From Candidatus Woesearchaeota archaeon (lineage in GTDB: Archaea > Nanobdellota > Nanobdellia > Woesearchaeales > GW2011-AR15), in NCBI GenBank assembly GCA_016935095.1, contig JAFGRO010000029.1, positions 7,313 to 71,312 of the forward strand: DNA of 64,000 nt. Direction: 5' to 3'. Shown here in pieces: positions 6,390 to 46,291 of the stretch. The notes under the pieces were generated by a model, which saw only the letters and a list, made by a program, of their open reading frames with translations, had not been told where the DNA came from and did no database searches. Every line of letters begins with the position of its first letter. Position 1 is the first letter of the stretch. A program made the translations under genes and the position numbers.

Positions 6390-6662
6390 TCACACAATAT
6401 TTGTAACTGGGCTTCTTTCAGTTCCTATTGTTTCTTTATCAAAAGAATATTTATTCCTGAATTTAAAAATCAATATAGAATCATTGTCTTTGTCTATCAT
6501 AGACTTAAGGCTTTTTTTGACTTTTACATAATCAGAATTAGAAAGTTCTCCTTCAAAAACAGAATTCTGTATCCAATTCATATATTGTTTCAGGAATTTA
6601 TTGATTTTGCTAACTTTGCATACATCAACATCATAGACTATAAGACAATACATTACCACCAC
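6390..6662 (-). CDS. cas2: CRISPR-associated endoribonuclease Cas2
   Basis: 90 aa, MVVMYCLIVYDVDV... typical Cas2 N-terminus; overlaps cas1 stop. Confidence 0.85.
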   Translation of the reverse strand: MVVMYCLIVYDVDVCKVSKINKFLKQYMNWIQNSVFEGELSNSDYVKVKKSLKSMIDKDNDSILIFKFRNKYSFDKETIGTERSPVTNIV

Positions 6663-7645
6663 ATCCTGAATGCTTCATACTGCTTTTCGCCAAGAAGGTG
6701 CTTTATCAGCTTATAACATTCAATCCTTATCAATCTTCTGTGCGAAACACGTCTTTTTAATTCAGGATGCTCTATTGTGAGCCTTAACCTGTTGTCAAAT
6801 TCCTTTATTACAAGTCTTCTTCCATTTTCATTGAGCAGGCAGCCCTTAAGTTCTTTCCTGAAATGATGCCCTTTTATCTCTTTTTTATTTACCAGCTTTA
6901 GGATTGCTCTCTGTACAATCAGCGGCTTAAACATCTCACTGAGATCAAGGGCTAATGAAAATCGCCGTTCAAACGGCTCATGAAGGTAGCTTATTGTTGG
7001 GTTGAGTTGTGTATGATAGATTTCACTTAGTACTGATGTATAAAGCATTGAGTTAAGAAAGCTAATCAAACAGTTTATCTCATTTTCAGGCGGCCTTTTT
7101 GTTCTTTTATCAAATTCAAAATCATTGGTGACTATTTCCCTGAATGTTTTGTAATATTCCTGCCAAGCCATCCCTTCAAGGTTCATTATCTCCACTATAG
7201 TATTTATGTTATCCAGCCTTAATGCGAATTTTTCGATTTTCTCCATAGTTTCTTTAACATTTTTGGAATGCTTCCTGTAATGCTCAAGCAGCCTTACAAG
7301 ATTGAAAAGAGAGGCCTTGATGAACTGTTTTGCAATAAATGTTCTTTTTTCATTGTCTATATAGTACTTTACCTGATTAACCAAAAGCGAGCCTGAAACA
7401 AGGCTTTCTTTTGGATAGAAAGAGCCTGTATAGTAGCCATAATAGTTGAAGAAGTGAATTATTATGCCTTGTTTGGATAGGTAAGTCAGCAGTTTAGTGT
7501 TTATTGTAGTTTCTCCCATGCAGTATAATGTATCAATGTTATTTATTGGAAGAGCCTTTTTTTCTTTCTCGTTCTCAAACCAGACAGTATTGTTTTTCCT
7601 TTTCAATGTTCCTGACTGGTTTATGTAAAAGCTTTGGCGTTGCAT
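6653..7645 (-). CDS. cas1: CRISPR-associated integrase Cas1
   Basis: 330 aa; position between cas4 and cas2; Cas1-like sequence. Confidence 0.85.
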   Translation of the reverse strand: MQRQSFYINQSGTLKRKNNTVWFENEKEKKALPINNIDTLYCMGETTINTKLLTYLSKQGIIIHFFNYYGYYTGSFYPKESLVSGSLLVNQVKYYIDNEKRTFIAKQFIKASLFNLVRLLEHYRKHSKNVKETMEKIEKFALRLDNINTIVEIMNLEGMAWQEYYKTFREIVTNDFEFDKRTKRPPENEINCLISFLNSMLYTSVLSEIYHTQLNPTISYLHEPFERRFSLALDLSEMFKPLIVQRAILKLVNKKEIKGHHFRKELKGCLLNENGRRLVIKEFDNRLRLTIEHPELKRRVSHRRLIRIECYKLIKHLLGEKQYEAFRMWW

Positions 7646-7658
7646 TTTGTCTCATAAC

Positions 7659-8129
7659 TTATGAAAAGCACAACTCATAATAGCTGCAATTCTTGCAGTA
7701 TCTTATCCTTTTTGCTTCCGGAGGCTTGTCTTCTCTGCAAAGCAATTCTATGTTTTTTAATACCTCTAAAAGCTCTTTCTCAAGTTCTTCTGACAGCATC
7801 ACTTCCTGAAGCCTGTTGTTTTCCTTGTATTTGATTATGCCTGTTGTATTTGTGCCATGATTCTTAAGCACATAAAGATAATATAATACCTGGAATTCTG
7901 CTGCCTTAGGAGCTGTGTTTTTCTTCTTAAGCTCAAACACCTTGCCATCCCTTAGAGCATCTATCTTTATATTGTCTATCTCTATTTTTTCCTTATCGTA
8001 ATCCTCATGGTAAATCTTTCCTATCTTAACAAAATCAGATTCATGCTCGCACTTAATATTGTGGGAAAAAAGCCACAGCTTTCTTTTGCATGTGAAGTAA
8101 TAATTGATGTGAGTGGCGGTTGGGTTCAT
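7659..8129 (-). CDS. cas4: Cas4 (RecB-like nuclease with C-terminal 4-Cys cluster)
   Basis: N-terminal YYFTCKRKLWLF (CxR-type motif), C-terminal CKNCSYYELC; 156 aa. Confidence 0.8.
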   Translation of the reverse strand: MNPTATHINYYFTCKRKLWLFSHNIKCEHESDFVKIGKIYHEDYDKEKIEIDNIKIDALRDGKVFELKKKNTAPKAAEFQVLYYLYVLKNHGTNTTGIIKYKENNRLQEVMLSEELEKELLEVLKNIELLCREDKPPEAKRIRYCKNCSYYELCFS

Positions 8130-8788
8130 TTGGATTCAAAGTCGCCTTTCTCAAGATCATTGAAATACTCTTCCCTGAGCTTGTTTATTTCGTTCATTAT
8201 AGGAATAACGAGGTTTCTGTTCTCAAGAAGGTCTAGCCTTTCGCCGATATAGGTAATCCATACTCTCTGCTCAGATGTTCTGATTTGGCTTTTAATTTCT
8301 GCAAGCATTACATCCCAATCAATACCTTTTTCTGCCAATAGCAAGCAATCATCAATATCTCCTGGCCTTTCTGTAAATGTCTTGAACATAAAAATGTCTG
8401 TTGTTGAGCATAATGAAATTGAAAGATTCTTCAGTGTCCTTATTGTTTCTGCCCTTTTCATCATGCTCTTTGAGAGAATGAATCCCTTGCAGACAGTTCT
8501 TTGAAAAAGATCAATCCTATAGTCATTTCTTATAAACATCTGATTAAGGTCAATTTTCTTGTATTCTGTAGTTGGTATTTTTGATTCAAAGCCAATATTT
8601 TTTAGAAGTTTTTCCACTGTCCTGAATTCATCAGTAGAATCAACTACAATATCAACATCTTTGGTTGCAGTCTTCATCCCATGATAGAGCATTACTGCTC
8701 CGCCTATAACATAGAAATGCACTTTTTCCTTCAGAGTTTCATCTATTTCTTTGAAGAGTTTGTCAAGGTCATTAAAGCTTAATATCAT
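8126..8788 (-). CDS. Nucleotidyltransferase-fold protein (AbiEii/MNT-like) embedded in cas operon
   Basis: GGAVMLYHGMKTATKDVDIVV matches G[GS]x9-13DxD NTase signature; overlaps cas4 start by 4 nt and upstream wHTH gene by 17 nt. Confidence 0.45.
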   Translation of the reverse strand: MILSFNDLDKLFKEIDETLKEKVHFYVIGGAVMLYHGMKTATKDVDIVVDSTDEFRTVEKLLKNIGFESKIPTTEYKKIDLNQMFIRNDYRIDLFQRTVCKGFILSKSMMKRAETIRTLKNLSISLCSTTDIFMFKTFTERPGDIDDCLLLAEKGIDWDVMLAEIKSQIRTSEQRVWITYIGERLDLLENRNLVIPIMNEINKLREEYFNDLEKGDFESK

Positions 8789-9710
8789 ACATCTCAGCTC
8801 TGTCCCTTATTTCAGACAATGTCGGATAACCCTCTATTTTGTTATTTTGAATTACTTTATTAATATTGTCCAGTATCTCATGATGGATTTTTGAAAGCTC
8901 TTTTTTATACTTTACATAAAACAATGCAAGAAGGATCAGGTTTTGTATGGTTTTTTCCTTTTCACAGCGGTAAAGAGAGTGGACAAAAACTTCTTTCTTC
9001 GATAGTCTCTTTTTGGGCAGGTAATAGTTATTGTCAACTGGATAAATCTTTATTCCATAAATTCCGTAAGCAGAAAAGCCTGTTAATGCTGCATTATATT
9101 CTGCTTTTGTCGAAAAAACAATCTCCTCTTTGGTTTTGTAATAAATTACTGAACCAGGAGGGATTCTCTTATCATATGCCTTTTCATATTTTTTAAGTTC
9201 TGCAAAAAATTCTTTTAAGCCTTTCCATAACTCCCCGTTGAACAGGTATTTGCCATCAATTGTTTTTATGAAGCTCTTTCTTCTGGCAATCCTTATCTTG
9301 TAGAATATTGTGTTTGGCCTGATGCCTGTAGCCTTAGTTATTTCTTCTATGCTTCTTGGAGTGTCTAATATGTAAAGATAAAGCGTTAAGCCGCAGCCTG
9401 AGATATCATCAATAAAGCTTGATTGCCTGCTTAACTCTCGAAGAAGCAGCTGCACATGCAGTAATTCTGATGGCTCAATTGCCTTGTTTTTCAGGCTAAG
9501 AAAGCCTTTTTGCTCTAAGGATTTGATTATCCTGTATATTTGGCTTTTATCCTTGTTTAGAGCTTGAGCTATTTCTAAGACCTGTTTTTTTCCCAGGGCA
9601 ACCTGCTCAAGCAATTGTAATTCTGTCTTTGAAAAGCGCATAACTTTAATAAAATGCAACTTATTTATAAATATTTGGTATTTTTTTGAAGTGAAATAGT
9701 TTTCTAGCAA
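8772..9710 (-). CDS. Winged-HTH transcriptional regulator (AbiEi-like?), partner of downstream NTase
   Basis: N-terminal HTH TELQLLEQVALGKKQVLEIAQALNKDKSQIYRIIKSLEQKGFL, second HTH-like TPRSIEEITKATGIRPNTIFYKIRI; first gene after the 180-bp gap downstream of cas3. Confidence 0.45.
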   Translation of the reverse strand: MLENYFTSKKYQIFINKLHFIKVMRFSKTELQLLEQVALGKKQVLEIAQALNKDKSQIYRIIKSLEQKGFLSLKNKAIEPSELLHVQLLLRELSRQSSFIDDISGCGLTLYLYILDTPRSIEEITKATGIRPNTIFYKIRIARRKSFIKTIDGKYLFNGELWKGLKEFFAELKKYEKAYDKRIPPGSVIYYKTKEEIVFSTKAEYNAALTGFSAYGIYGIKIYPVDNNYYLPKKRLSKKEVFVHSLYRCEKEKTIQNLILLALFYVKYKKELSKIHHEILDNINKVIQNNKIEGYPTLSEIRDRAEMYDIKL

Positions 9711-9890
9711 AATCTAGAATCAAAATCATCTTCATCTATGTAATTAGAATCAATTTCTTTTGGATTGATTCCTTCTTTAATTGTATAGCCCTTCTTGAGA
9801 AAGAGTATTTTTTCTCTTTCAGGCAGATTTAATTTCCTGGATAACTCTCCATAATCCTGGATTGAGAAAGTGAACTTAACAAAACAGAAT

Positions 9891-12134
9891 TTATTGGTTC
9901 AAACCATTATCAATTTCTTCCTCTTCAGTTAAACCAAGCTTGTTATCATACTTTTTATTGATAAAATTTCCATCTATTCCATTCTTCCAATATATTGGGA
10001 CTTTTGTAAGATATCCTGTCTTTTCTCTAACATATTGGCGGTATGAAATTTTTTTTTCTTTAAACTCTTCTTCTAGCTTGGCAACTTCTGTACGAAATTT
10101 AGCAGGAAACATACTTACTGACATCAATCCGTCTCTGGTTCGAACCATGTTTCTTAGTTCTTCTTCTTTCAAATCGATAGCATAGATAAAGCTATTTTTC
10201 TGCCAAATTTGTCTAATAGTTTTTGTATTCTCTTCAATTTTATTGACAAGCTTATCTTTTATTATGTCATAATACACATTATTCACCTTAAGTAAATCAT
10301 TTTCATTAGTAATTTTTCTTGTTTGAAGCAATTCTGAAGTTAAAGAAACAAATTCAGGATTATAGGGATACTTTTCTTCATATCTAAAAACTTTAACAAG
10401 CGCAGGTTTCCCAACACTAATATTATTAGGTCCATTATATGAAATTTTTCTGTTTACTCTACCAAACCTTTGGACTAACGAGTCAAAATGTGCACAGTCA
10501 GTATAAAGAACATCAAAATCAATGTCAAGTGAAATTTCCACAATTTGTGTTGATACAAAAATAAAGGGTCCTTTTTTATCTTTTAATTCTTTAAGTTCTT
10601 TTTCTCTATCACATCTATCATTAAGGATAAATCTGCTATGAAGAAGTAATTTTTTTGGAAACTTAATAAGAACCTGGAAGAGTTTTTGTGCTCTCTCAAC
10701 AGTATTGAGCACTATAAGAATTTTTTCTCCTTTTTTGTACTTTTTTCTCAATTCGTCAATCAAGGATTCATAGTCAAAGATATCCGAATCTTTGTATTCA
10801 ATCTTAACTCTCTGAATATGTGAATAAATAGAGTTTACATATTTTGTTTTTAGAACTTCAACAAATCCGTTCTCCTGAAATAATTTTCTAAGATAATCTG
10901 GAAAAGTTGCACTCATTATCAAGAAACGACTTCCATATTTCTTACTTAAATAATCAACAGCAAATTTTAGTAGGCCTAAATTCCGCTCGTCAGTAGCATG
11001 TACTTCATCAATAATGACTGAGCTATTTGAAAATACGACTTCTTTTAACCCATATTTTTTATAGTTCATTAGTGATAAAATTATTTGGTCAAACGTTGTT
11101 ACATTGAGTGCGGGAAAGAAACTCTTTAACAAAGTTTTTTTGGAAAATTCATTTTCATCTGAAAAAACTTCAAAATAGGAATGGTAAAATCCAATTTCCT
11201 CTTCTTTAAATACTTTTTTCAAACGATCATAGATTCCGTTTATACTTGCAGTTGTAGGAAGAACATAAAAATTCTTAAAATTGCTATTCTCTTTAAGCCA
11301 CAGAATAGCTGATTCTGTTTTTCCAAAGCCCGTTGGTAGTTGAAGAAACCCGTTTCCTTTAAACTTGAATATTTTCTCCTGATAATCTCTTAGAGAATAT
11401 CCTTTATGCTTTAGAATAATATCTTCAGGATTTGTCTCTAGCTTTTGTATATTCTCCCTTGAACTAGACAAGTAGTCACTATAGATTATAACTCCGGAAA
11501 TAAATACATAAATTGCTCTTAGCTCCTCACATGGTACATCAACAATATCCCATTTAATTCTATTATAAATTCTTTTTGCCAAATAAGTAGTGTTAGGCTT
11601 TTTATTTACTAATTCCAGTATATTTTCTGGGATTTCAATGTCAAAATTTTTTTGAAATAGTTGTATTTCCTCAAGAACACCACATAAACCAATATCAAAG
11701 GTACTTTGTGGGTCACTTCTATCAAATAATGATTTTTTTAGTGGTGAATGATGAGAAGCAACTGCCAGCATCATGATGTTCTTCAGCAACTTATCTTCGT
11801 CTTTCGAAGCATTGATTATATTATCAATAACAGTAAGAGATAGTAAAGCATGTGAAACCTTCTTTTTTTCACCTGACTTCAGTTGCTTTTGAAAATAAGT
11901 ATCTGCTTTACCTATATCATGAAGCAAGGCACCTATTTGTGCAAATTTGTATATTTGGGTTTCAAGTCCTAAAAAGGATTTATATTTAGGTAACCTAAAT
12001 AGCTGAACTAACTCATTTGCTCTTTCATATGTTTCAATAAGATGAGTCCCAAGCAAAACTTTCTTTTCTTTGGGAGATAAAGGAGAGGGATATTTAGCAT
12101 AAATTTTAGAGTAAGACACAATGCTCATCTCCAA
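9891..12134 (-). CDS. cas3: Cas3 fused HD nuclease + DExH helicase
   Basis: HD motif LLHDIGK near N-terminus; Walker A PTGFGKTE; DExH box VIIDEVHATDE; 747 aa. Confidence 0.9.
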   Translation of the reverse strand: MEMSIVSYSKIYAKYPSPLSPKEKKVLLGTHLIETYERANELVQLFRLPKYKSFLGLETQIYKFAQIGALLHDIGKADTYFQKQLKSGEKKKVSHALLSLTVIDNIINASKDEDKLLKNIMMLAVASHHSPLKKSLFDRSDPQSTFDIGLCGVLEEIQLFQKNFDIEIPENILELVNKKPNTTYLAKRIYNRIKWDIVDVPCEELRAIYVFISGVIIYSDYLSSSRENIQKLETNPEDIILKHKGYSLRDYQEKIFKFKGNGFLQLPTGFGKTESAILWLKENSNFKNFYVLPTTASINGIYDRLKKVFKEEEIGFYHSYFEVFSDENEFSKKTLLKSFFPALNVTTFDQIILSLMNYKKYGLKEVVFSNSSVIIDEVHATDERNLGLLKFAVDYLSKKYGSRFLIMSATFPDYLRKLFQENGFVEVLKTKYVNSIYSHIQRVKIEYKDSDIFDYESLIDELRKKYKKGEKILIVLNTVERAQKLFQVLIKFPKKLLLHSRFILNDRCDREKELKELKDKKGPFIFVSTQIVEISLDIDFDVLYTDCAHFDSLVQRFGRVNRKISYNGPNNISVGKPALVKVFRYEEKYPYNPEFVSLTSELLQTRKITNENDLLKVNNVYYDIIKDKLVNKIEENTKTIRQIWQKNSFIYAIDLKEEELRNMVRTRDGLMSVSMFPAKFRTEVAKLEEEFKEKKISYRQYVREKTGYLTKVPIYWKNGIDGNFINKKYDNKLGLTEEEEIDNGLNQ

Positions 12135-12795
12135 ATTTAAATTGCGCTACAGGTTCATAAAAATTCAGATTGACATTATAGAACATAAGTACTTCTCTCT
12201 GCTCTTCCAGCGTTCTTCTGCTTCCTTTATAAGAGAAAGAGTGCGCACACTTGCATACCTGTGGGCTTATGAAAAATCCAGTTCCAATCTGAATATTATA
12301 TTTCTCTTTTGTTTCAATGAAAGAATCTACCTTACTGTCTTCCGTGTTTGCTATTTCATACAGAGAAGAAACGTTCTCAACTACAGCAAGAAAATCAGAG
12401 TGTCCTAAGTAGAGGACCCTAGAAGGAGAGATAATTGAATCATAAATTTCTCTAATCAATTTTTCATTTTCAGTAGCTATAAAAATTTTAAAGCTTGGTC
12501 TGTTCAGAAGCTTCCTAGATGTAATAGTACTATCTGACTGCTTTTTTTTATCGGTTTTTAAGTTCTTTAATTTCCATAAGTCATTAATAAAACCAGAAAT
12601 GTTAATGATTTTGACCCCTATAAACAATTTTGCATACAGTTCATTCATTTCATCATACTGCAAACCCATAGCGTTGCCTATCATCCCAACAATATGAGTC
12701 TTTTGTGGGCCGATCAGGCTATCAAAAAAAGAAAGAGTAAAGGGATTTCTAAAGAAAGCCATGTCTCCTCTCAAAATAAAATGAAATCCTTTCAT
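12106..12795 (-). CDS. cas5: Cas5
   Basis: 229 aa, MKGFHFILRGDMAFFRNPF... Cas5-like N-terminus; overlaps cas3 start, follows cas7. Confidence 0.75.
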   Translation of the reverse strand: MKGFHFILRGDMAFFRNPFTLSFFDSLIGPQKTHIVGMIGNAMGLQYDEMNELYAKLFIGVKIINISGFINDLWKLKNLKTDKKKQSDSTITSRKLLNRPSFKIFIATENEKLIREIYDSIISPSRVLYLGHSDFLAVVENVSSLYEIANTEDSKVDSFIETKEKYNIQIGTGFFISPQVCKCAHSFSYKGSRRTLEEQREVLMFYNVNLNFYEPVAQFKFGDEHCVLL

Positions 12796-13688
12796 GATAA
12801 ATCTAGTTGTTCAAGTTTTGTCTTCAAGTCTTTCAGACTCAGAATTTCTACTTTTTTATTACTTTCAAAAGCTTTCTCCAATTCGCTAGCATTAGATATA
12901 AAATAATCTAGATATCCAATTATTACTGTTTCAAGCTGCTCATCATACAATTCAATAACCTGCTTTAACCTGCTAACATCAATATTTTTGTTTTCATCCA
13001 TCCATAGTCTGTCGAAGATTGTCAATGCTTTATCTCTCCTAATTACAGCAATCATAAATTCTGGCGAGGTCTTTGTCAGAAAATTAGTTTGTTTTCCCCC
13101 ACCCCATGAATTGAAGACTGCTTCAATTAGTTCTCTAAAATGCTTTTTTTTATATTTATCATCAATCTCTTTATCGTCGCTCTCGTCAACACCAATCCTA
13201 TCTAGTTCAATCGCGAAATTTCCTCGCATGAGATTACTGGAAACCTCAATATCATAGAGACTATGATTTGTTCCCTTTGGATCATATCTCACACCACGAT
13301 TGATATCGCCTTTATATTCATAAAGAGAAATAAGGCCATTTGTTTTTACGGGAGCTACTCTTGTCTTCTTCAGATTTGTATTCATATAGCCAAATAAATC
13401 ATCATCAATGAAACTTATATCACAAGAAGAAGAAACTTGGCTTGCTTCCTCTTTTTCTTTTTCAGTTGCTTTAGCATCTTTTTTTGATAAGACATCTGAA
13501 ATTGGGACGCCTTTTGATTTCCAGTATTCTTTAAAGGCGTATTTCAGTGAAACACCTGACACATATACTCTTTGTTTGCCGTCAAAATCTTCTGTTTTCT
13601 TCAGTGTAGCTATGTTGCCTTCAGTAGAATTGCTATTAATATTGGCATTTTCAATTCTTGTTAGATATGCTAGTTCTAGTAATTTCAT
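12792..13688 (-). CDS. cas7: Cas7 (Csh2-like backbone subunit)
   Basis: 298 aa, position between cas8 and cas5; 4-nt overlap with cas5. Confidence 0.7.
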   Translation of the reverse strand: MKLLELAYLTRIENANINSNSTEGNIATLKKTEDFDGKQRVYVSGVSLKYAFKEYWKSKGVPISDVLSKKDAKATEKEKEEASQVSSSCDISFIDDDLFGYMNTNLKKTRVAPVKTNGLISLYEYKGDINRGVRYDPKGTNHSLYDIEVSSNLMRGNFAIELDRIGVDESDDKEIDDKYKKKHFRELIEAVFNSWGGGKQTNFLTKTSPEFMIAVIRRDKALTIFDRLWMDENKNIDVSRLKQVIELYDEQLETVIIGYLDYFISNASELEKAFESNKKVEILSLKDLKTKLEQLDLS

Positions 13689-13690
13689 TT

Positions 13691-15088
13691 TTATCCCTCC
13701 ACATTATTTGATTCTTTTTTCTCTTTTAAGAAGACTGCATTTGTTAGTCCAATAAGGAAAAAGGTCTTTAGTTGTGCAAAATCATCCATATGTTCTATGA
13801 ATATGTCACCTCTAATGCCAGTCCCTATTTTCAATTGGAGCCGGTTCAGTAGATTCATGAACTCTTCTTGATTTCTTGCTCTTCTCATATCATAAATCTC
13901 TTTAATGATAACATTTTGCCTTGATTCATTCCTTTTGAATTGCATCCCTATTGAGAAGGCATGTTTATATACCTCGTTAAACAATTCTTTTTTATCCATT
14001 TCAAACACCTCAAAGTAAGATTTTAATACAGTTCTGCTGAAACTTATTAGCTGAACCTGCTTAAGCTGTTCAGCTTTACTCTTTTTTTTATACTCATCAA
14101 GCTTAAGAAATAATATTTCCTCAAGAATTCTCCAATTGAGTCTATTATTTCTACACAGGGAGAGCATAAGAGCATTTCTATTAATAAGTTGAGCTTCATC
14201 TTTAGGATTTACAATTAGTGAATTCAAGAAAGAGCTAAAAGGTCGAATCAATGTCCCTTTAGCATTTCTCTTTATAGATTGGTTGGTTTTGTTTAGAAAG
14301 GTAATAATTAGATTTAAATTATTTAGATTGTCGAATTCTCTATAGATTTTTTTACTTTTGGATAAGTCTGCTGACAGAACAAGCGCACCAACATCAAGCT
14401 GATCTTCTTTAGCAAGTTCTTTTTGCTCGTTAAGAAGTTGTGTTATATAATCAAGAAATGAAATTAATAAATAGTATGCCCCATAAATATAGTACGAGCC
14501 GGTAATGTTGACATTTTTAAAGTAATTATTTGTTGAAGCGTCCATGTTCATCCTATGAGTCATTAAATGATTTACATGTTTGGGGTTTCCATAGAGGATA
14601 ATTATTGAGGTAAGATTTTTCTCTGTTATAAAACATACATTTCGATATGCTGCAAATAGTATGTTCTTACATTTGTGACAGGCTACAAATTCAGATGTGC
14701 CACCATAAAGATTTGGAAACTTTTGCTTAGTAATGATGAACGGGAAATAGAAAGAAGTAATTGTTCCTGCCCCTTTTGATTCACAAATTATACATTTCTT
14801 TTGATTTTTTTCTTCTTTTTGAAGAAGTTCTTTCATATATTCGAAATCTGTTCTGCTTCCTTTTGATTGAAGTTGAGCGCCGAGGAAGCTGTTGGCAAAT
14901 ATAGTTCTTGTTAGCTTATTATCTTTGCTTGTGTAAAGATTGTTAATGATGATACCCTCATCAAGTCCCTTCTTTGGAATTAAATCAATGTCAATACTCT
15001 CCTCTCTTGTTTTAGAAAAAAGTCCTTTCCTAGATTTCTGAAAGTAACTTAATGTTGCCAATCCTGAACTATACCATTCTTTTATCAT
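13691..15088 (-). CDS. cas8b: Cas8-family large subunit (type I-B-like Cas8b)
   Basis: 465 aa immediately upstream of cas7 in the interference operon; Cys-rich segment CIICESKGAG...CHKCKN. Confidence 0.55.
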   Translation of the reverse strand: MIKEWYSSGLATLSYFQKSRKGLFSKTREESIDIDLIPKKGLDEGIIINNLYTSKDNKLTRTIFANSFLGAQLQSKGSRTDFEYMKELLQKEEKNQKKCIICESKGAGTITSFYFPFIITKQKFPNLYGGTSEFVACHKCKNILFAAYRNVCFITEKNLTSIIILYGNPKHVNHLMTHRMNMDASTNNYFKNVNITGSYYIYGAYYLLISFLDYITQLLNEQKELAKEDQLDVGALVLSADLSKSKKIYREFDNLNNLNLIITFLNKTNQSIKRNAKGTLIRPFSSFLNSLIVNPKDEAQLINRNALMLSLCRNNRLNWRILEEILFLKLDEYKKKSKAEQLKQVQLISFSRTVLKSYFEVFEMDKKELFNEVYKHAFSIGMQFKRNESRQNVIIKEIYDMRRARNQEEFMNLLNRLQLKIGTGIRGDIFIEHMDDFAQLKTFFLIGLTNAVFLKEKKESNNVEG

Positions 15089-15574
15089 TTATTCCCCCAA
15101 CCCCTCCATCACTTCCTCCATCGTCTCCTTATGTCCCCAGCCCTCGCAGCTTCTTTCAACTATTGAAATTAACCTATCCTTAAACAAAGGTATTAAATCC
15201 GTATTATCATTTAAGTTTTTAATAATCTGCTCAAACATCGATTCCATGCTTGAGTAGAAGGCTTCATACATATCCCCATATTCTTCTCCAATTCTTACGC
15301 CTGTCTCAACATAGAACACCATCAGCTCCAGAAGATGCTCCGGCTGCTTTGATATTCTTTTAAAGTCTGTTATTGCTTTTCTTGCTTCTCTAAGGTTAAT
15401 CCGTTCATTCCAGAGAATGCTTTTGAGCTTTTTCTTAAAGTACTCAAGGGCATCTTCCGGCTTATTCTCGAGCTTCAGCCTCAAAAAATCAGCGTTTTCT
15501 TTATTCAGGCTTGATAGCTCTAAAAGGAGTGAGTATAGTTCTTCTTTCTCCAATTGTTTAAGCACATTATTCAT
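15089..15574 (-). CDS. Hypothetical helical protein in GC-rich island inside cas operon
   Basis: 161 aa; markedly higher GC than flanks; start overlaps upstream ORF by 8 nt. Confidence 0.4.
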   Translation of the reverse strand: MNNVLKQLEKEELYSLLLELSSLNKENADFLRLKLENKPEDALEYFKKKLKSILWNERINLREARKAITDFKRISKQPEHLLELMVFYVETGVRIGEEYGDMYEAFYSSMESMFEQIIKNLNDNTDLIPLFKDRLISIVERSCEGWGHKETMEEVMEGLGE

Positions 15575-16409
15575 TTTTTTTCAATCGTTTCTTTTTCTCT
15601 GCTTCTGTCTCTAACAGATAGTTTTCCTGCGAAACAACCTTTGATCCTGATTCAAGCTCAAGATTTTTTCTTGCATCACCAGCTATTTTTCCGCCTTTTT
15701 GTGCGGCTGACCTGTTTTCAGTGAAGCCTTGTGAATCCCGGCTCCTTGTTATTTTTGTGGTTGAAGCTTCACCCAGCATTGTAAATATGAGTTCTAAGTC
15801 GTCCATATGGTCTCTTAAATTTTCCCGAGTTAAACTCTTGAAATTCTTATACTCTTCAACAGTCTTGCCAAAAGTTGCTTTGCTTATTTCATTGGTAAGA
15901 ATTGCGTATTCTTTTTGTTGCTTAACTCCTCTTTTATCCCACTCATCTGTGAGTTCCTGCCTGACTGCTATCCCTCTCACTCTTTTCTCTATCCAATCAT
16001 CTGAGTATCCTTTTGCTTTGTAAAGCTCCTTCATTCGTGCCTGGACCAGCTCAGGATTCTCTATCTCCTGCACTCTCTCATATCCAACCTGAGCCAGCCA
16101 CCGCTTGAAGGGTTCTGCTTTGGGTGACGGGATTGATTGAATAATACGAAACATGTTTCTGGTGTTTGCGCAGTCTGTTGCCCTGAATTTTCCATCTTCT
16201 GCAGGCAGTTTTAACTGTACGATTTTATCGTACGGTTCAAATCCTTCATCAGAAAGCTTAGATTTTAAGTCAGACCAATATCTCTTTGGTAGTGAGCTTG
16301 CTTCTAAAGCGTTAACCACATCTATGATAGAAAAATACCATTCATTATTATGCCAAATCCTCCGGATATTTTTGTCTTGAAATACAACCAAAGCATTGTG
16401 TTCGATCAT
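15567..16409 (-). CDS. Bro-N domain protein (DinD/Bro family-like) in GC-rich island
   Basis: N-terminal VVFQDKNIRRIWHNNEWYFSIIDVVNALEASSLPKRYW resembles Bro-N consensus (F...iR....g.pwF.a.Dva.aL); charged C-terminal region. Confidence 0.45.
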   Translation of the reverse strand: MIEHNALVVFQDKNIRRIWHNNEWYFSIIDVVNALEASSLPKRYWSDLKSKLSDEGFEPYDKIVQLKLPAEDGKFRATDCANTRNMFRIIQSIPSPKAEPFKRWLAQVGYERVQEIENPELVQARMKELYKAKGYSDDWIEKRVRGIAVRQELTDEWDKRGVKQQKEYAILTNEISKATFGKTVEEYKNFKSLTRENLRDHMDDLELIFTMLGEASTTKITRSRDSQGFTENRSAAQKGGKIAGDARKNLELESGSKVVSQENYLLETEAEKKKRLKKNE

Positions 16410-16450
16410 ATTCTAACCATCCCTTTCCTGTCTTTTCCTGCAAATTCCAT

Positions 16451-16732
16451 TTATCTCATTCCCATCATTCTGCACAACGGACAATCATCATGTCTCCAGC
16501 TAAACCTTGCATTCTTCCATTCATCATCCGATAATGTGCATATCGTCCTGTCAGTCCTGAGCATGTTCAAAAAATCCCTGTGTGTCATCTCAGTTCCTTC
16601 AAGCTTTCTTGCCAGCTCGTCCAGTTTTGGCCAATGCTCATTGTGCAATTCTTCCCGTTCATAGCATTTCCTTGTACAGTAATTCCCGTGAAACCAATTT
16701 ACCAAATGCCTGATTTTAACTGGTCTTTTCAC
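16451..16732 (-). CDS. Small Cys-containing protein (CxxxC ... CxxC) in GC-rich island
   Basis: 93 aa, CTRKC and CPLC; start overlaps cas6 stop by 4 nt. Confidence 0.35.
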   Translation of the reverse strand: MKRPVKIRHLVNWFHGNYCTRKCYEREELHNEHWPKLDELARKLEGTEMTHRDFLNMLRTDRTICTLSDDEWKNARFSWRHDDCPLCRMMGMR

Positions 16733-17478
16733 GTCTTCACCACATTCATAAACCCAAATCCAGAGCTATTCAACTCTCCAAACCCTGACTCTAAACCAAG
16801 CCATAACACTCTCCTTTTCAATTCATCTAAGTGTGAAAACCGGAATTCCCACAAACTGCCAATTGTGGGTATCTCATTTCCTTCTTCTATCCTGTGAACA
16901 CATACAGATTTCTTGAACTTGAATATCTCAAATAAATCAATAGTTTTCATTTCGGAGCTATAATACTGGTTGTATTTCTTAACAAGATTATCAGAAATCT
17001 GTTTTAGGAAAGCATTAAAGTCATATTCAGGGCGCCAGTACTCATAAGGCCTTTTACTTTTAATACCATATATATGATAATTTTGTTTTGGTATCCTCAT
17101 TACAATTGGTGTTCCTGTAATAAGGCTTGCTTTCTCAGTAATAAAAGGCTTCAGGTAGCTTATCTCATCAATGCTAAACATTGATTCTCCTATTAATACA
17201 GGCTTATTGAATTGCTTTATCTCTGCAATCCTTCCGTAAAGAAACCTTATAAAATCACTATCTGGCGAAGAAATAATAAAATGACGTTCTTCTCCTGTTT
17301 TAACATCCTCTACAGGAAATATGTTTGAATAGCAGAAAAACTTATAATATCCCTTATCATGCTTATTGAAATACTTTGATTCCTTCATAAGGCCATAGAC
17401 AAATCCCCTTAGCTTAGAATAATACTTCTCATCATAAGAAAAATCTTTCAGGGCTTTGAATTTTAATATTATACGCAT
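16729..17478 (-). CDS. cas6: Cas6 crRNA endoribonuclease
   Basis: 249 aa, C-terminal glycine-rich loop GLESGFGELNSSGFGFM typical of Cas6; first gene of operon. Confidence 0.8.
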   Translation of the reverse strand: MRIILKFKALKDFSYDEKYYSKLRGFVYGLMKESKYFNKHDKGYYKFFCYSNIFPVEDVKTGEERHFIISSPDSDFIRFLYGRIAEIKQFNKPVLIGESMFSIDEISYLKPFITEKASLITGTPIVMRIPKQNYHIYGIKSKRPYEYWRPEYDFNAFLKQISDNLVKKYNQYYSSEMKTIDLFEIFKFKKSVCVHRIEEGNEIPTIGSLWEFRFSHLDELKRRVLWLGLESGFGELNSSGFGFMNVVKT

Positions 17479-17504
17479 GAAAAAATCCCCCTTTAATCAT
17501 AAAT

Positions 17505-24582: not shown

Positions 24583-25173
24583 TTGCAGATTATGATTAAT
24601 AAAAAGGATTTTTTGATAATTAAAAAAAACATGGAAGAAAATGAAGTTATTAGAGAAAAAACAATCCAAAAATCAAGGGAAGTCATCCAGCTTTCTAAAA
24701 AACTAATCTATGCATTGCACAGGAAAGATAATAAAAAAGCACAGAAGTTGTTTAAAGACATTAATAGAGAAATTAGTGAATTGGAAAAAATCGGGAACAA
24801 ATGCCAAAAGTTTATTTCTTTCGGGATGTATAATACCGCAATCCAGGAATTTGTCGAAGCAGCCTGCTATTATGAATTTATTGTTAATAAAAAGATTCCT
24901 GGCTTTAATGAGTTAAAGGTTGAATACGAATCTTATTTGCTAGGTTTATGTGATTTAACAGGAGAGCTTGAAAGAAAAGCAGTATACTCTACTATTGACG
25001 GTGACTACAAAAAGGTTGCAGAGATTAGGGAACTTGTAAATGAAATCTACGAGCAGTTTTTACAATTTGATTTAAGGAATTCTGAACTCAGAAAAAAATC
25101 TGATTCCATTAAATGGAACCTGAAGAGAATTGATGAAATTCTCTATGATCTGAAATTAAAGGACAAGATATAG
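24583..25173 (+). CDS. Translin-family protein (putative)
   Basis: AIQEFVEAACYYEFI...YLLGLCDLTGELERKAV...EIYEQF resembles translin conserved blocks (YL.GL.DLTGEL.R). Confidence 0.45.
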   Translation: MQIMINKKDFLIIKKNMEENEVIREKTIQKSREVIQLSKKLIYALHRKDNKKAQKLFKDINREISELEKIGNKCQKFISFGMYNTAIQEFVEAACYYEFIVNKKIPGFNELKVEYESYLLGLCDLTGELERKAVYSTIDGDYKKVAEIRELVNEIYEQFLQFDLRNSELRKKSDSIKWNLKRIDEILYDLKLKDKI

Positions 25174-43439: not shown

Positions 43440-43979
43440 CTACTCTGCGACTTTTAAAAAGTACGTAGTATCTTGTTCGGCGGTAAAAGAAAAAATATTT
43501 TTCTGGACATCATTAATTACTTTCACTTCATGGTGCATCTCTTGGCTTAATATATAATCATCTGCTTCATTCATGTCTTTTTTTCCTGTAGACTCATGAT
43601 GTTCATATCCTGACCAAAAACTACCTCCAGAATATCGTTTTCGAAAATTTGGATGCTTTTCAAATATCCTTTTGGATGATCTTGATTTGAGCATTATCTC
43701 AGCATTCATTATTGAATATTTTTTTGGAATATTCACTCTGAAATGCGTGTGATTTCCTCCAAATCCTATAGGTCCAAATTCAAAACCATTTCTCTCAAAT
43801 TCTCGAAAAGCTGCTACACACGTGTTCATAACTGATTGCTTTCGCAAGCAGTTATAGCGGCACTTACAAACAAACATCATAGTAATCCAATTATTTCTAG
43901 TGTCTTTATTCATTAAACTCACCTCAGAAAGATTTTTATGGTTATATCTATTGATAAATATCTGCAATAAGCGAATCAT
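43440..43979 (-). CDS. tnpA: IS200/IS605-family transposase (TnpA, HUH Y1)
   Basis: GGNHTHFRVNIPKKYS (HuH) and KSRSSKRIFEKHPNFRKRYSGGSFWSGYEHHESTG resembling IS200 TnpA C-terminus. Confidence 0.6.
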   Translation of the reverse strand: MIRLLQIFINRYNHKNLSEVSLMNKDTRNNWITMMFVCKCRYNCLRKQSVMNTCVAAFREFERNGFEFGPIGFGGNHTHFRVNIPKKYSIMNAEIMLKSRSSKRIFEKHPNFRKRYSGGSFWSGYEHHESTGKKDMNEADDYILSQEMHHEVKVINDVQKNIFSFTAEQDTTYFLKVAE

Positions 43980-44414: not shown

Positions 44415-44534
44415 TGGGCCCGATGAGATTTGAATTCGTGAATCCAAAGGATTTCTCACGACCGCCCGATTATCAGTCTCGCCCTCAAAATTTAATTTTG
44501 AAACGGGCGCTCCACCAGACTAAGCTACGGGCCC
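44415..44534 (-). tRNA. tRNA-Ile(GAU) with two putative non-canonical introns (26 nt in the anticodon-stem 5' strand at ~30/31; 20 nt at T-stem/T-loop junction ~53/54)
   Basis: Minus strand GGGCCCG-TA-GCTT-AGTCTGGTG-GAGC-G-CCCG[TTTCAAAATTAAATTTTGAGGGCGAG]A-CTGATAA-TCGGG-CGGTC-GTGAG[AAATCCTTTGGATTCACGAA]TTCAAAT-CTCAT-CGGGCCC-A; spliced form gives a 74-nt cloverleaf. Confidence 0.55.
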
Positions 44535-44602
44535 ATCTTATTCTTGGAATTAGAATATTATTTAAAAAGTTAACGAAAAAACTATAAAAAATAAAAGAAA
44601 AG

Positions 44603-44735
44603 CGCCCCGGACCAGACTCGAACTGGTGACCTCATGATCTCCGCGTTACACTTGTGCGCATTTGCACTTCGTGAAATGTAACAGTCATGCGCTCTACCTG
44701 TTGCTCCGTGCTTTACACGTCTAAGCTACCGAGGC
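44603..44735 (-). tRNA. tRNA-Asn(GUU) with canonical 37/38 intron (40 nt) and a ~20-nt insertion in the D-loop
   Basis: Minus strand GCCTCGG-TA-GCTT-AGACG[TGTAAAGCACGGAGCAACAG]GTA-GAGC-G-CATGA-CTGTTA[CATTTCACGAAGTGCAAATGCGCACAAGTGTAACGCGGAG]A-TCATG-AGGTC-ACCAG-TTCGAGT-CTGGT-CCGGGGC-G. Confidence 0.55.
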
Positions 44736-44841: not shown

Positions 44842-45285
44842 TCAGGAAAGTTTAAAATAAATCAAATCTCCTTTGTTAATATGATTTTTCTCAGTAAAAT
44901 TTGCAACTACTTCAATTACATATAGTGAATCATTATCAGGATAATACACTTCACATGATTCTGATTTACAGGGAGCAAGGTCTTTTTCAATATGAATTAT
45001 TCTTTTATCTTCATTTAACCAGATTATATCAATAGGGAAATTCATGTTCTTCATCCAGAACCCATATTCATCAGGCTCTTCAAAAACAAAGAGCATTCCC
45101 TTGTTTTCTTCTAAAGTTTTCCTGTACATCAAGCCCTGTTCCCTTTCTTCAGGGGAATCCTTTACCTCGGCATCAATGCAGATGTTATTTTTAAAACAGA
45201 TTTTTTTAATATTAGTGCATGATACTAAAATCAAAAGCATGAGAATTAATAATTGAAATTTCATACACAGATTTATGCTTCGCAA
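44842..45285 (-). CDS. DUF192 (COG1430) secreted protein
   Basis: GLMYRKTLEENKGMLFVF...FWMKNMNFPIDIIWL...IEVVANF resembles DUF192; N-terminal signal peptide. Confidence 0.55.
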   Translation of the reverse strand: MRSINLCMKFQLLILMLLILVSCTNIKKICFKNNICIDAEVKDSPEEREQGLMYRKTLEENKGMLFVFEEPDEYGFWMKNMNFPIDIIWLNEDKRIIHIEKDLAPCKSESCEVYYPDNDSLYVIEVVANFTEKNHINKGDLIYFKLS

Positions 45286-45750: not shown

Positions 45751-45847
45751 TACGGTAGCCGGGGCTCGAACCCGGGTCACGACCTTTCTTCAATAATATG
45801 GGAGGGTCGGGTCTTTTAGTGTCAAGATACCACTGGACCACTACCGT
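45751..45847 (-). tRNA. tRNA-Gly(CCC) with 13-nt canonical-position intron and probable ~13-nt D-loop insertion
   Basis: Minus strand ACGGTAG-TG-GTCC-AGTGGTA[TCTTGACACTAAA]AGAC-C-CGACC-CTCCCA[TATTATTGAAGAA]A-GGTCG-TGAC-CCGGG-TTCGAGC-CCCGG-CTACCGT-A; acceptor and T-arm unambiguous, D-arm model tentative. Confidence 0.45.
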
Positions 45848-46024: not shown

Positions 46025-46128
46025 CGCGCCTGATGAGATTCGAACTCACGACCTATTGCTCTCTTCTTTTGAATAGGAGGTTCGACAAGTTTGTTTCAAT
46101 CGCTCTATCCAAACTGAGCTACAGGCGC
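46025..46128 (-). tRNA. tRNA gene with ~29-36-nt insertion(s) in the anticodon region; identity unresolved
   Basis: Minus strand GCGCCTG-TA-GCTC-AGTTTGGATA-GAGC-G-ATTGA...(36 nt)...GCAAT-AGGTC-GTGAG-TTCGAAT-CTCAT-CAGGCGC-G; acceptor, D- and T-arms canonical, no 7-nt loop with U33 at standard position. Confidence 0.45.
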
Positions 46129-46291
46129 ACGTCAAAGCTTTCTAAGCCTCAGCTAACTCTCTTCATCCCATTAAGGGACTACTCCAAGGGCTCTTCATCG
46201 GCTGGTTAGGCTTAATTTAAGGTTGAAACTTAATTCATTTAATAAGTTTTCTAGTAAAATATAAATAATAGTGAATTTATAAAATGTACAG

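Follow-up and report, generated by a model that had tools for sequence, protein, structure and literature searches.

The window (the whole 64,000-nt stretch of DNA that was analysed) very probably encodes a functional tRNA-Asn(GUU) of a small, uncultured archaeon of DPANN type with AT-rich DNA, in a gene that is interrupted by two introns of the protein-spliced, bulge-helix-bulge (BHB) kind. The gene lies on the minus strand and, as read in the sequence, spans 133 nt including the discriminator G73. It consists of three exons and two introns, and CCA is not encoded (Table 1). From 5' to 3' it reads GCCUCGG UA GCUU (28 nt) GAGC G CAUGA CUGUUA (40 nt) A UCAUG AGGUC, with the remainder ACCAG UUCGAGU CUGGU CCGGGGC G. 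The acceptor stem (GCCUCGG/CCGGGGC), the T-arm (ACCAG-UUCGAGU-CUGGU) and the anticodon arm (CAUGA-CUGUUAA-UCAUG) described in an earlier note on this DNA are all directly visible. The T-rich run that follows the gene is likely to serve as an archaeal transcription stop, judging from its letters. We infer cleavage and ligation of the transcript from three observations: the splice motif, its conservation and covariation among relatives, and the match of the product to intron-free relatives.

Table 1. Coordinates of the tRNA-Asn(GUU) gene, its introns and splice elements, and neighbouring features (numbering of the window; arrows mark cuts).
Feature	Position	Strand	Basis or remark
Whole tRNA-Asn(GUU) gene	44603..44735	-	In-silico splicing gives a 73-nt cloverleaf, ARAGORN tRNA-Asn(gtt)
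Exon 1, tRNA positions 1-15 (GCCUCGG UA GCUU AG)	44721..44735	-	
Exon 2, tRNA positions 16-37 (CAGGUA GAGC G CAUGA CUGUUA)	44679..44700	-	
Exon 3, tRNA positions 38-73 (A UCAUG AGGUC ACCAG UUCGAGU CUGGU CCGGGGC G)	44603..44638	-	
D-loop intron, 20 nt, ACGUGUAAAGCACGGAGCAA, position 15/16, relaxed HBh' motif	44701..44720	-	BHB finder and motif-only solver; coordinates from blastn
H helix 5' strand GCUU (tRNA 10-13, D-stem 5' strand)	44723..44726	-	Pairing with intronic GAGC in the MFE fold
5' bulge A14-G15↓A, directly after the H helix 5' strand	44722-44720	-	
Intron hairpin h', CGUGU-AAA-GCACG	44707..44719	-	Covariation in 38 sequences
H helix 3' strand GAGC (44706-44703), copy of the D-stem 3' strand, plus AA	44701..44706	-	
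37/38 intron, 40 nt, CAUUUCACGAAGUGCAAAUGCGCACAAGUGUAACGCGGAG (CAUUUC...GCGGAG), relaxed hBH	44639..44678	-	Motif finder, solver, ARAGORN intron mode
T-rich run UUUUCUUUUAUUUUUU, directly 3' of the gene	44585..44601	-	Read in the sequence
tRNA-Ile(GAU), introns 30/31 (26 nt, 44503-44478) and 53/54 (20 nt, 44454-44435, AAAUCCUUUGGAUUCACGAA)	44415-44534	-	In-silico splicing gives Ile(gat)
Fourth tRNA-like gene, 13-nt 37/38 intron (45798-45786) and ~14-nt insert	45751-45847	-	Missed by ARAGORN and Rfam
tRNA-Arg(CCU), introns 30/31 (16 nt, 46096-46081) and 37/38 (13 nt, 46073-46061)	46025-46128	-	In-silico splicing gives Arg(cct)
IS200/IS605-type Y1 transposase ORF, ~440 nt from the tRNA cluster	43440-43979	-	Pfam Y1_Tnp on the identical Logan contig, SRR13394437

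Removal of both insertions in silico left a 73-nt sequence that ARAGORN called tRNA-Asn(gtt), in agreement with the identity first proposed for the gene. When only the D-loop intron was removed, ARAGORN in intron mode returned tRNA-Asn with a canonical 40-nt intron, i(38,40); with the D-loop insert kept in place it found nothing. The spliced exons form a flawless cloverleaf with G18G19, UUCGA, G15/C48 and G73. ARAGORN drew it as a standard cloverleaf with the GUU anticodon in a 7-nt loop (CUGUUAA) that contains U33 and A37, and in a genome scan (described below) the tRNA body proved near-identical to at least 114 archaeal tRNA-Asn genes. Run on the window as it stands, ARAGORN reported no tRNA anywhere. 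Rfam missed the tRNA-Asn gene both at the gathering threshold and at E ≤ 10, and detected two neighbouring intron-bearing tRNAs. The tRNA cluster was located by a custom scan of the window for acceptor and T-arms, in which no second tRNA-Asn was seen. The window has a GC content of 33% and contains an archaeal SRP RNA (Rfam).

Between the GCUU and GAGC strands of the D-stem there are 28 nt, which amounts to the 20-nt excess noted earlier. The archaeal tRNA splicing endonuclease recognizes a 4-bp helix flanked by 3-nt bulges, and 'relaxed' motifs that have a single flanking helix (HBh', hBH) are known from introns at non-canonical sites (PMC4090602, PMC5829648). We searched for such elements with a motif finder and a solver, both of which applied the rule of a 4-bp helix, two 3-nt bulges and a cut after the second bulge base; the motif-only solver was further constrained to a 72-76-nt tRNA-Asn product. 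It returned exactly two introns, at 15/16 and 37/38, which together yield the 73-nt tRNA-Asn(gtt). At the D-loop site, GCUU pairs with an intronic GAGC in a 4-bp central helix, next to a 3-nt bulge AG↓A and a 5-bp hairpin. The final two intron bases, AA, make up the 3' triplet AA↓C together with C16, and no helix closes the motif on this side. All these elements (GCUU paired with the intronic GAGC, the AGA bulge and the hairpin) are present in the minimum free energy (MFE) fold of the 134-nt precursor (-46.0 kcal/mol). The mature D-arm is absent from this fold, and a constraint to form the mature D-stem raises the energy by 2.3 kcal/mol. In the modelled structure, the D-loop splice site is a relaxed bulge-helix-bulge of the HBh' form. 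The lack of a flanking helix at the 3' site implies that an enzyme of relaxed specificity is needed. The proposal that the D-loop insertion is a second intron and not an expanded D-loop is thus borne out by the BHB-type motif in the MFE fold. It is strengthened by covariation over 38 versions of the intron and by the D-loop of intron-free relatives, which equals the predicted spliced product.

The borders of this intron had originally been placed with UGUAAAGCACGGAGCAACAG removed and the D-loop left as AGACGGUA; they were off by 4 nt, and motif geometry together with the intron-free relatives moves the intron to 44720-44701. Excision of ACGUGUAAAGCACGGAGCAA gives the spliced D-loop AGCAGGUA. 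The junction implied by the former borders, AG-AC-GGUA, occurs in none of the 114 intron-free genes listed, in which the two bases before GGUA are CU, UU, CA, UA, UC and a few others. Among the matches listed, 13 intron-free genes have the T-arm of the window gene, and these carry AG-CA-GGUA (8), AG-TA-GGUA (3), AG-TC-GGUA (1) or AG-C-GGUA (1). The choice of C or U before GGUA parallels the C or U found directly after GAGCAA in the intron-bearing genes. Moreover, for 8 of 43 intron-bearing genes, the acceptor, the D-loop and positions 26-30 are identical to those of an intron-free gene elsewhere among the matches listed, so that one tRNA body occurs both with and without the intron. From the junctions and from these paired bodies it follows that the intron sits between positions 15 and 16.

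The second insertion is the 40-nt intron at the canonical position, as had been proposed; it was recovered by the motif finder and the solver, and by ARAGORN once the D-loop intron was removed. It begins one nucleotide 3' of the anticodon, and positions 32-35 lie in the central helix, where C32-U35 (CUGU) pairs with GCGG. The 3' bulge AG↓A adjoins the 5-bp anticodon stem, which serves as the outer helix. The 5' site UA↓C sits in a larger loop, and the hairpin begins after an A.C mismatch; the motif is therefore of the relaxed hBH type. Note that the MFE structure has an extended helix at this intron instead, and is 2.5 kcal/mol more stable than the splice-competent fold. The 37/38 introns of relatives that were resolved by the solver end in RCRG plus 2 nt, complementing C32-U35.

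On this basis, a splicing pathway can be proposed. In the transcribed precursor, the intronic GAGC would hold the D-stem strand GCUU in the splice motif in place of its mature partner. EndA would cut after the second base of each triplet (15↓16, after GAGCAA, and at 37↓38), and an RtcB-type ligase would join G15 to C16. After ligation, GCUU could pair with the true GAGC, allowing the D-arm to form (D-loop AGCAGGUA). The 40-nt intron would be removed likewise, via the CUGU/GCGG helix beside the anticodon stem. Non-canonical HBh'/hBH introns, including those in the D-loop, are cut by broad-specificity EndAs (PMC5829648, PMC4090602). In many lineages of DPANN archaea, EndA is of the alpha4 type with an additional L3 loop; these lineages show markedly more disruption of tRNA genes, and the tRNA sets predicted for them are incomplete (PMC5829648). 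Neither EndA (tRNA_int_endo) nor RtcB gave a Pfam match in the 20 mid-size window ORFs scanned. The window is a fraction of the genome, and a broad-specificity EndA is presumed for this host.

To trace the D-loop intron among relatives, we searched prokaryotic genomes, one for each species, for tRNA-Asn genes that have this D-arm, with 0-30 nt permitted within the arm. At least 120 loci were found; among the matches listed, 114 have no insertion and 5, all archaeal metagenome-assembled genomes (MAGs), have one. At least five archaeal MAGs thus have, where the window gene has its D-loop intron, a gap of 22-26 nt, equivalent to an intron of 20-24 nt. The five listed are labelled as Woesearchaeota, Nanoarchaeota or 'uncultured'. 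The DPANN-type assignment of the host is based on the labels of the MAGs in which the most similar tRNA-Asn genes occur, and some of these labels ('uncultured Methanosarcinales') look unreliable. A match in Clostridia was set aside as a chance match. A metagenome scan with the insertion flanks, leaving the 3' triplet unconstrained, added 37 more genes with the insertion. The same intron is therefore present in at least 42 related genes from DPANN-type genomes and metagenomes, and 38 distinct versions, including that of the window, were compared.

All 38 versions have one layout: GCUU, the bulge AGN (N being A in 31, G in 6 and U in 1), a hairpin with 4 or more bp, GAGC and the 3' triplet. Note that the search patterns fixed GCUU and GAGC, and the invariance of the H helix in this set is a product of the pattern. 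The triplet is AAU in 19 versions, AAC in 18 and ACU in 1, and so reads AAY in 37 of the 38. Hairpin pairs 1-4 are paired in every version, with two to four pair types each. In an anchored alignment of the 38 sequences, 97.3% of the hairpin cells are paired and double-sided changes occur in all five hairpin pairs, and none of 500 shuffles reached the observed covariation score. Slid controls for the whole 9-pair structure gave 31-47% paired. The consensus of the intron is C-R-U-G-Y ... R-C-A-Y-G-GAGC-AA. When 1.15 Mb of fetched loci was scanned for D-loop introns with other D-stems, one extra case appeared, a tRNA-Ile(GAU) of a Woesearchaeota MAG (locus L008, minus strand, reverse-complement offset 1922). 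It reads GCUU AG↓A CAAUU...AAUUG GAGC AA↓C and has the same D-stem; the intron type is thus not confined to tRNA-Asn. Seven relatives have the D-loop intron without a 37/38 intron. The D-loop intron is old and common to a whole clade, and looks vertically inherited; the 37/38 intron is lineage-specific.

The tRNA-Asn gene belongs to a cluster of four minus-strand tRNA genes with two insertions each. ARAGORN missed all four, and Rfam missed two, including tRNA-Asn. tRNA-Arg(CCU) appears in the Rfam results as a tRNA with a single insertion of 38 nt, and is mistaken for Ser(aga) by ARAGORN in intron mode. In tRNA-Ile(GAU), both introns are non-canonical, with none at 37/38, and Rfam aligns the inserts merely as loops; its 53/54 intron has the layout 1+5+3+5+4+2 and the junctions AG↓A...AA↓U, as in the Asn D-loop intron. 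The fourth gene is probably tRNA-Gly(CCC). Its ~14-nt insert lies between the D-arm and the anticodon stem, where a relaxed solver and a brute-force search gave ambiguous junction placements. The gene order Asn then Ile recurs in Woesearchaeota MAGs.

Several tRNA-Asn relatives are interrupted more heavily. Four introns are present in L141 (172 nt) and L135 (154 nt), at 15/16, 30/31 and 37/38 together with 43/44 (L141) or 53/54 (L135). Five are present in L146 (a 187-nt gene) and in L145/L157 (178 nt), which have the set of L141 and a T-loop intron. Up to 114 of 187 nt are intronic, and removal of all introns from L146, L145/L157, L141 and L135 gave a clean 73-nt tRNA-Asn(gtt) in each case. 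The strict solver cannot resolve genes that have T-loop introns or a helix in which just 3 of the 4 pairs form (L146, L145, L151, L129, L133); L146 and L145 were resolved by hand.

Outside the tRNA genes, the Logan contig of SRR13394437 that matches the transposase region stops ~250 nt before the tRNA cluster and provides no independent copy of the gene. Within the cluster, there are weak, sub-threshold Rfam matches to sR47, an archaeal C/D-box sRNA, at 46147-46202 (minus strand, E = 0.12), directly upstream of tRNA-Arg, and to SNORD64 at 45037-45099 (minus strand); both are possible C/D-box guide RNAs. Farther away, a run of ORFs resembling a type I CRISPR-Cas system occupies ~6650-17500 on the minus strand (Cas1-, Cas4-, Cas3-, Cas5-, Cas7-, Cas8- and Cas6-like by N-terminal sequences), and a translin-family protein is encoded at 24583-25173 on the plus strand (Pfam E = 7e-28).

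Across the loci analysed (L006-L159) and the window cluster, the HBh'-type introns at 15/16, 30/31 and 53/54 nearly always have A as their first base and AA as their last two, the latter preceded by 4 nt that copy the exon strand. At 53/54, these 4 nt change along with the exon (CGAC/GUCG, CAGC/GCUG, CACC/GGUG, CGUG/CACG). This A...AA design could be a requirement of the enzyme or a sign of common origin. The D-loop intron might also belong to a mobile family of 'mini-introns' that moves between tRNA positions and genes in this lineage, a view that concerns origin only and is compatible with a functional gene spliced at two BHB introns. The same layout (1 nt, a hairpin of ~5 bp, a 4-nt exon-mimic and AA, cut as NG↓A...AA↓N) does recur at three sites, namely 15/16 (in tRNA-Asn and in the tRNA-Ile of L008), 30/31 and 53/54, and the 53/54 intron of the window tRNA-Ile is likewise exactly 20 nt long. 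However, similarity does not extend beyond the structurally forced parts (p = 0.57 for Asn 15/16 against Ile 53/54), the A...AA ends of these introns could equally be a demand of the endonuclease at sites without the second helix, and the 15/16 intron looks vertically inherited. We therefore consider a mobile family rather unlikely. A wider reading can be put forward tentatively, as a possibility we would not yet favour: the 15/16 intron may mark a DPANN clade whose tRNA introns go far beyond those published, with the stereotyped 'NG↓A ... exon-mimic + AA↓N' design reflecting either a rule of the L3-loop endonuclease or a mobile mini-intron.

The two introns of the tRNA-Asn gene had been noted to share sequence, which was taken to suggest duplication or transposition within the gene. 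The shared motif (GUGUAA..C.CGGAG) is physically present: GUGUAAAGCACGGAG at 44718-44704 aligns with GUGUAACGCGGAG at 44651-44639, with 12 matches (12 of 15) and one 2-nt gap. Movement of an intron from one tRNA position to another also has a precedent, having been proposed for Thermoproteales (Fujishima et al. 2010, as cited in PMC4090602). The extent of the similarity, however, is within chance (p about 0.05-0.35). When the two introns are aligned locally, the best alignment is the one noted earlier, and its score was reached by 5-17% of mononucleotide shuffles (p = 0.05-0.17) and by 13-35% of dinucleotide-preserving shuffles (p = 0.13-0.35). Of the 21 pairs that can be formed from the seven resolved introns of the window cluster, two score better than the Asn pair (p = 0.07), and none of the 21 is significant after correction. 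A blastn search of the window with both introns revealed no other copies, only chance matches of up to 11 nt.

The matched letters also play different structural roles. CACG and GAGC of the D-loop intron form the 3' strand of the hairpin and the H strand, respectively, whereas in the 37/38 intron the H strand is formed by GCGG and the bulge by AG. Each half of the motif is dictated by pairing to its own exon. Nor is there a consistent signal in the 15 relatives with both introns, where same-gene similarity ranges from p = 0.03 to 0.98. Against the 37/38 intron of the window, foreign D-loop introns match equally well, with scores of 15 and 14 compared to 14 for its own D-loop intron. Furthermore, the D-loop intron is older than the window lineage: seven relatives have no 37/38 intron at all, and in the closest ones the 37/38 introns are unrelated. 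Chance-level similarity, the structural register of the matches and the family comparison together lead us to reject duplication within the gene, in which one intron would be a moved copy of the other, as very unlikely. The resemblance of the two introns is coincidental.

Retention of the 20 nt, giving a mature tRNA with an expanded D-loop and an extra hairpin, is extremely unlikely. Such a hairpin could in principle be tolerated, and the fold with the native D-stem is just 2.3 kcal/mol worse than the MFE. A retained insert, however, has no need of an invariant GAGC copy, a 3-nt AGN bulge and an AAY triplet at the spacing of the endonuclease, and near-identical tRNA bodies occur without it. 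Lying between G15 and G18/G19, it would also break the tertiary contacts between D-loop and T-loop. That the insertions are junk in a decaying pseudogene is hardly credible: the failure of ARAGORN and Rfam to recognise the gene and an IS200-type transposase ORF ~600 nt away would suit a dead gene, but the exons give a flawless cloverleaf, compensatory changes preserve the architecture in 38 distinct versions, the gene is followed by a T-run, and no other tRNA-Asn is seen in the window. We thus retain the functional, twice-interrupted tRNA-Asn gene as the preferred interpretation.

The gene as found reveals no new mechanism, and its interest lies elsewhere. tRNA finders miss such genes, which dozens of DPANN genomes contain; the apparent absence of tRNAs from DPANN MAGs (noted in PMC5829648) can therefore be an artefact of prediction and not a sign of host dependence. 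In addition, the 38 covarying versions of the conserved 15/16 intron and their intron-free counterparts make up a clean natural dataset, which may help to define how DPANN endonucleases recognize a site without the second flanking helix, and to date the gain and loss of introns.

Disrupted tRNA genes are known from ARMAN and other DPANN archaea, together with splicing endonucleases of the epsilon2 type and of the alpha4 type with an L3 loop (Fujishima 2011, PMC3239211; Kaneta 2018, PMC5829648). The present case is like these in its DPANN-type host, a group in which EndA variants are linked to tRNA disruption and some tRNAs escape prediction (PMC5829648). Multi-intron tRNA genes have been described in Thermoproteales and other Crenarchaeota (Sugahara et al. 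2007/2008, as reviewed in PMC4090602 and PMC4033280), with non-canonical positions that include 20/21, 22/23, 25/26, 29/30, 30/31, 45/46, 53/54, 56/57, 59/60 and others (PMC4090602). Those genes resemble ours in having BHB/HBh'/hBH introns at non-canonical sites, often in addition to one at 37/38, and in being missed by ordinary tRNA finders. They differ in belonging to another phylum. Moreover, position 15/16 is absent from the list of known positions in PMC4090602, and relatives of the window tRNA-Asn reach four and five introns, where the archaeal maximum reported is three per tRNA gene (PMC4033280, PMC8450103). The family of the window's D-loop intron was not found described in the literature searched. 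'Transposed introns' are very similar introns in unrelated tRNA bodies (Fujishima 2010, as described in PMC4090602). In contrast, the window pair is similar at chance level, with no clear similarity beyond what structure forces. With the non-canonical HBh' class, on the other hand, the D-loop intron shares a restored cloverleaf, the 4-bp helix with its bulges, a conserved hairpin structure and a junction found in intron-free orthologues.

The closest precedent is the pre-tRNA-Glu(UUC) of Methanopyrus kandleri, which contains a canonical 37/38 intron and a relaxed HBh' D-loop intron at 20b/21 (Kaneta et al. 2018, PMC5829648). Both genes combine a canonical with a D-loop intron, and both have an HBh' site that calls for an endonuclease tolerant of the missing helix. 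In M. kandleri, a hyperthermophilic euryarchaeon, the D-loop intron is at 20b/21 of tRNA-Glu, whereas the window intron is at 15/16 of tRNA-Asn in a DPANN-type archaeon with 33% GC. Unlike the M. kandleri intron, it is known from sequence alone and is conserved across dozens of genomes. In conclusion, the tRNA-Asn(GUU) gene represents a known kind of archaeal gene disruption. Its novelty lies in where the intron sits, in which group of hosts it occurs and how widely it is conserved, and the mechanism is unchanged.
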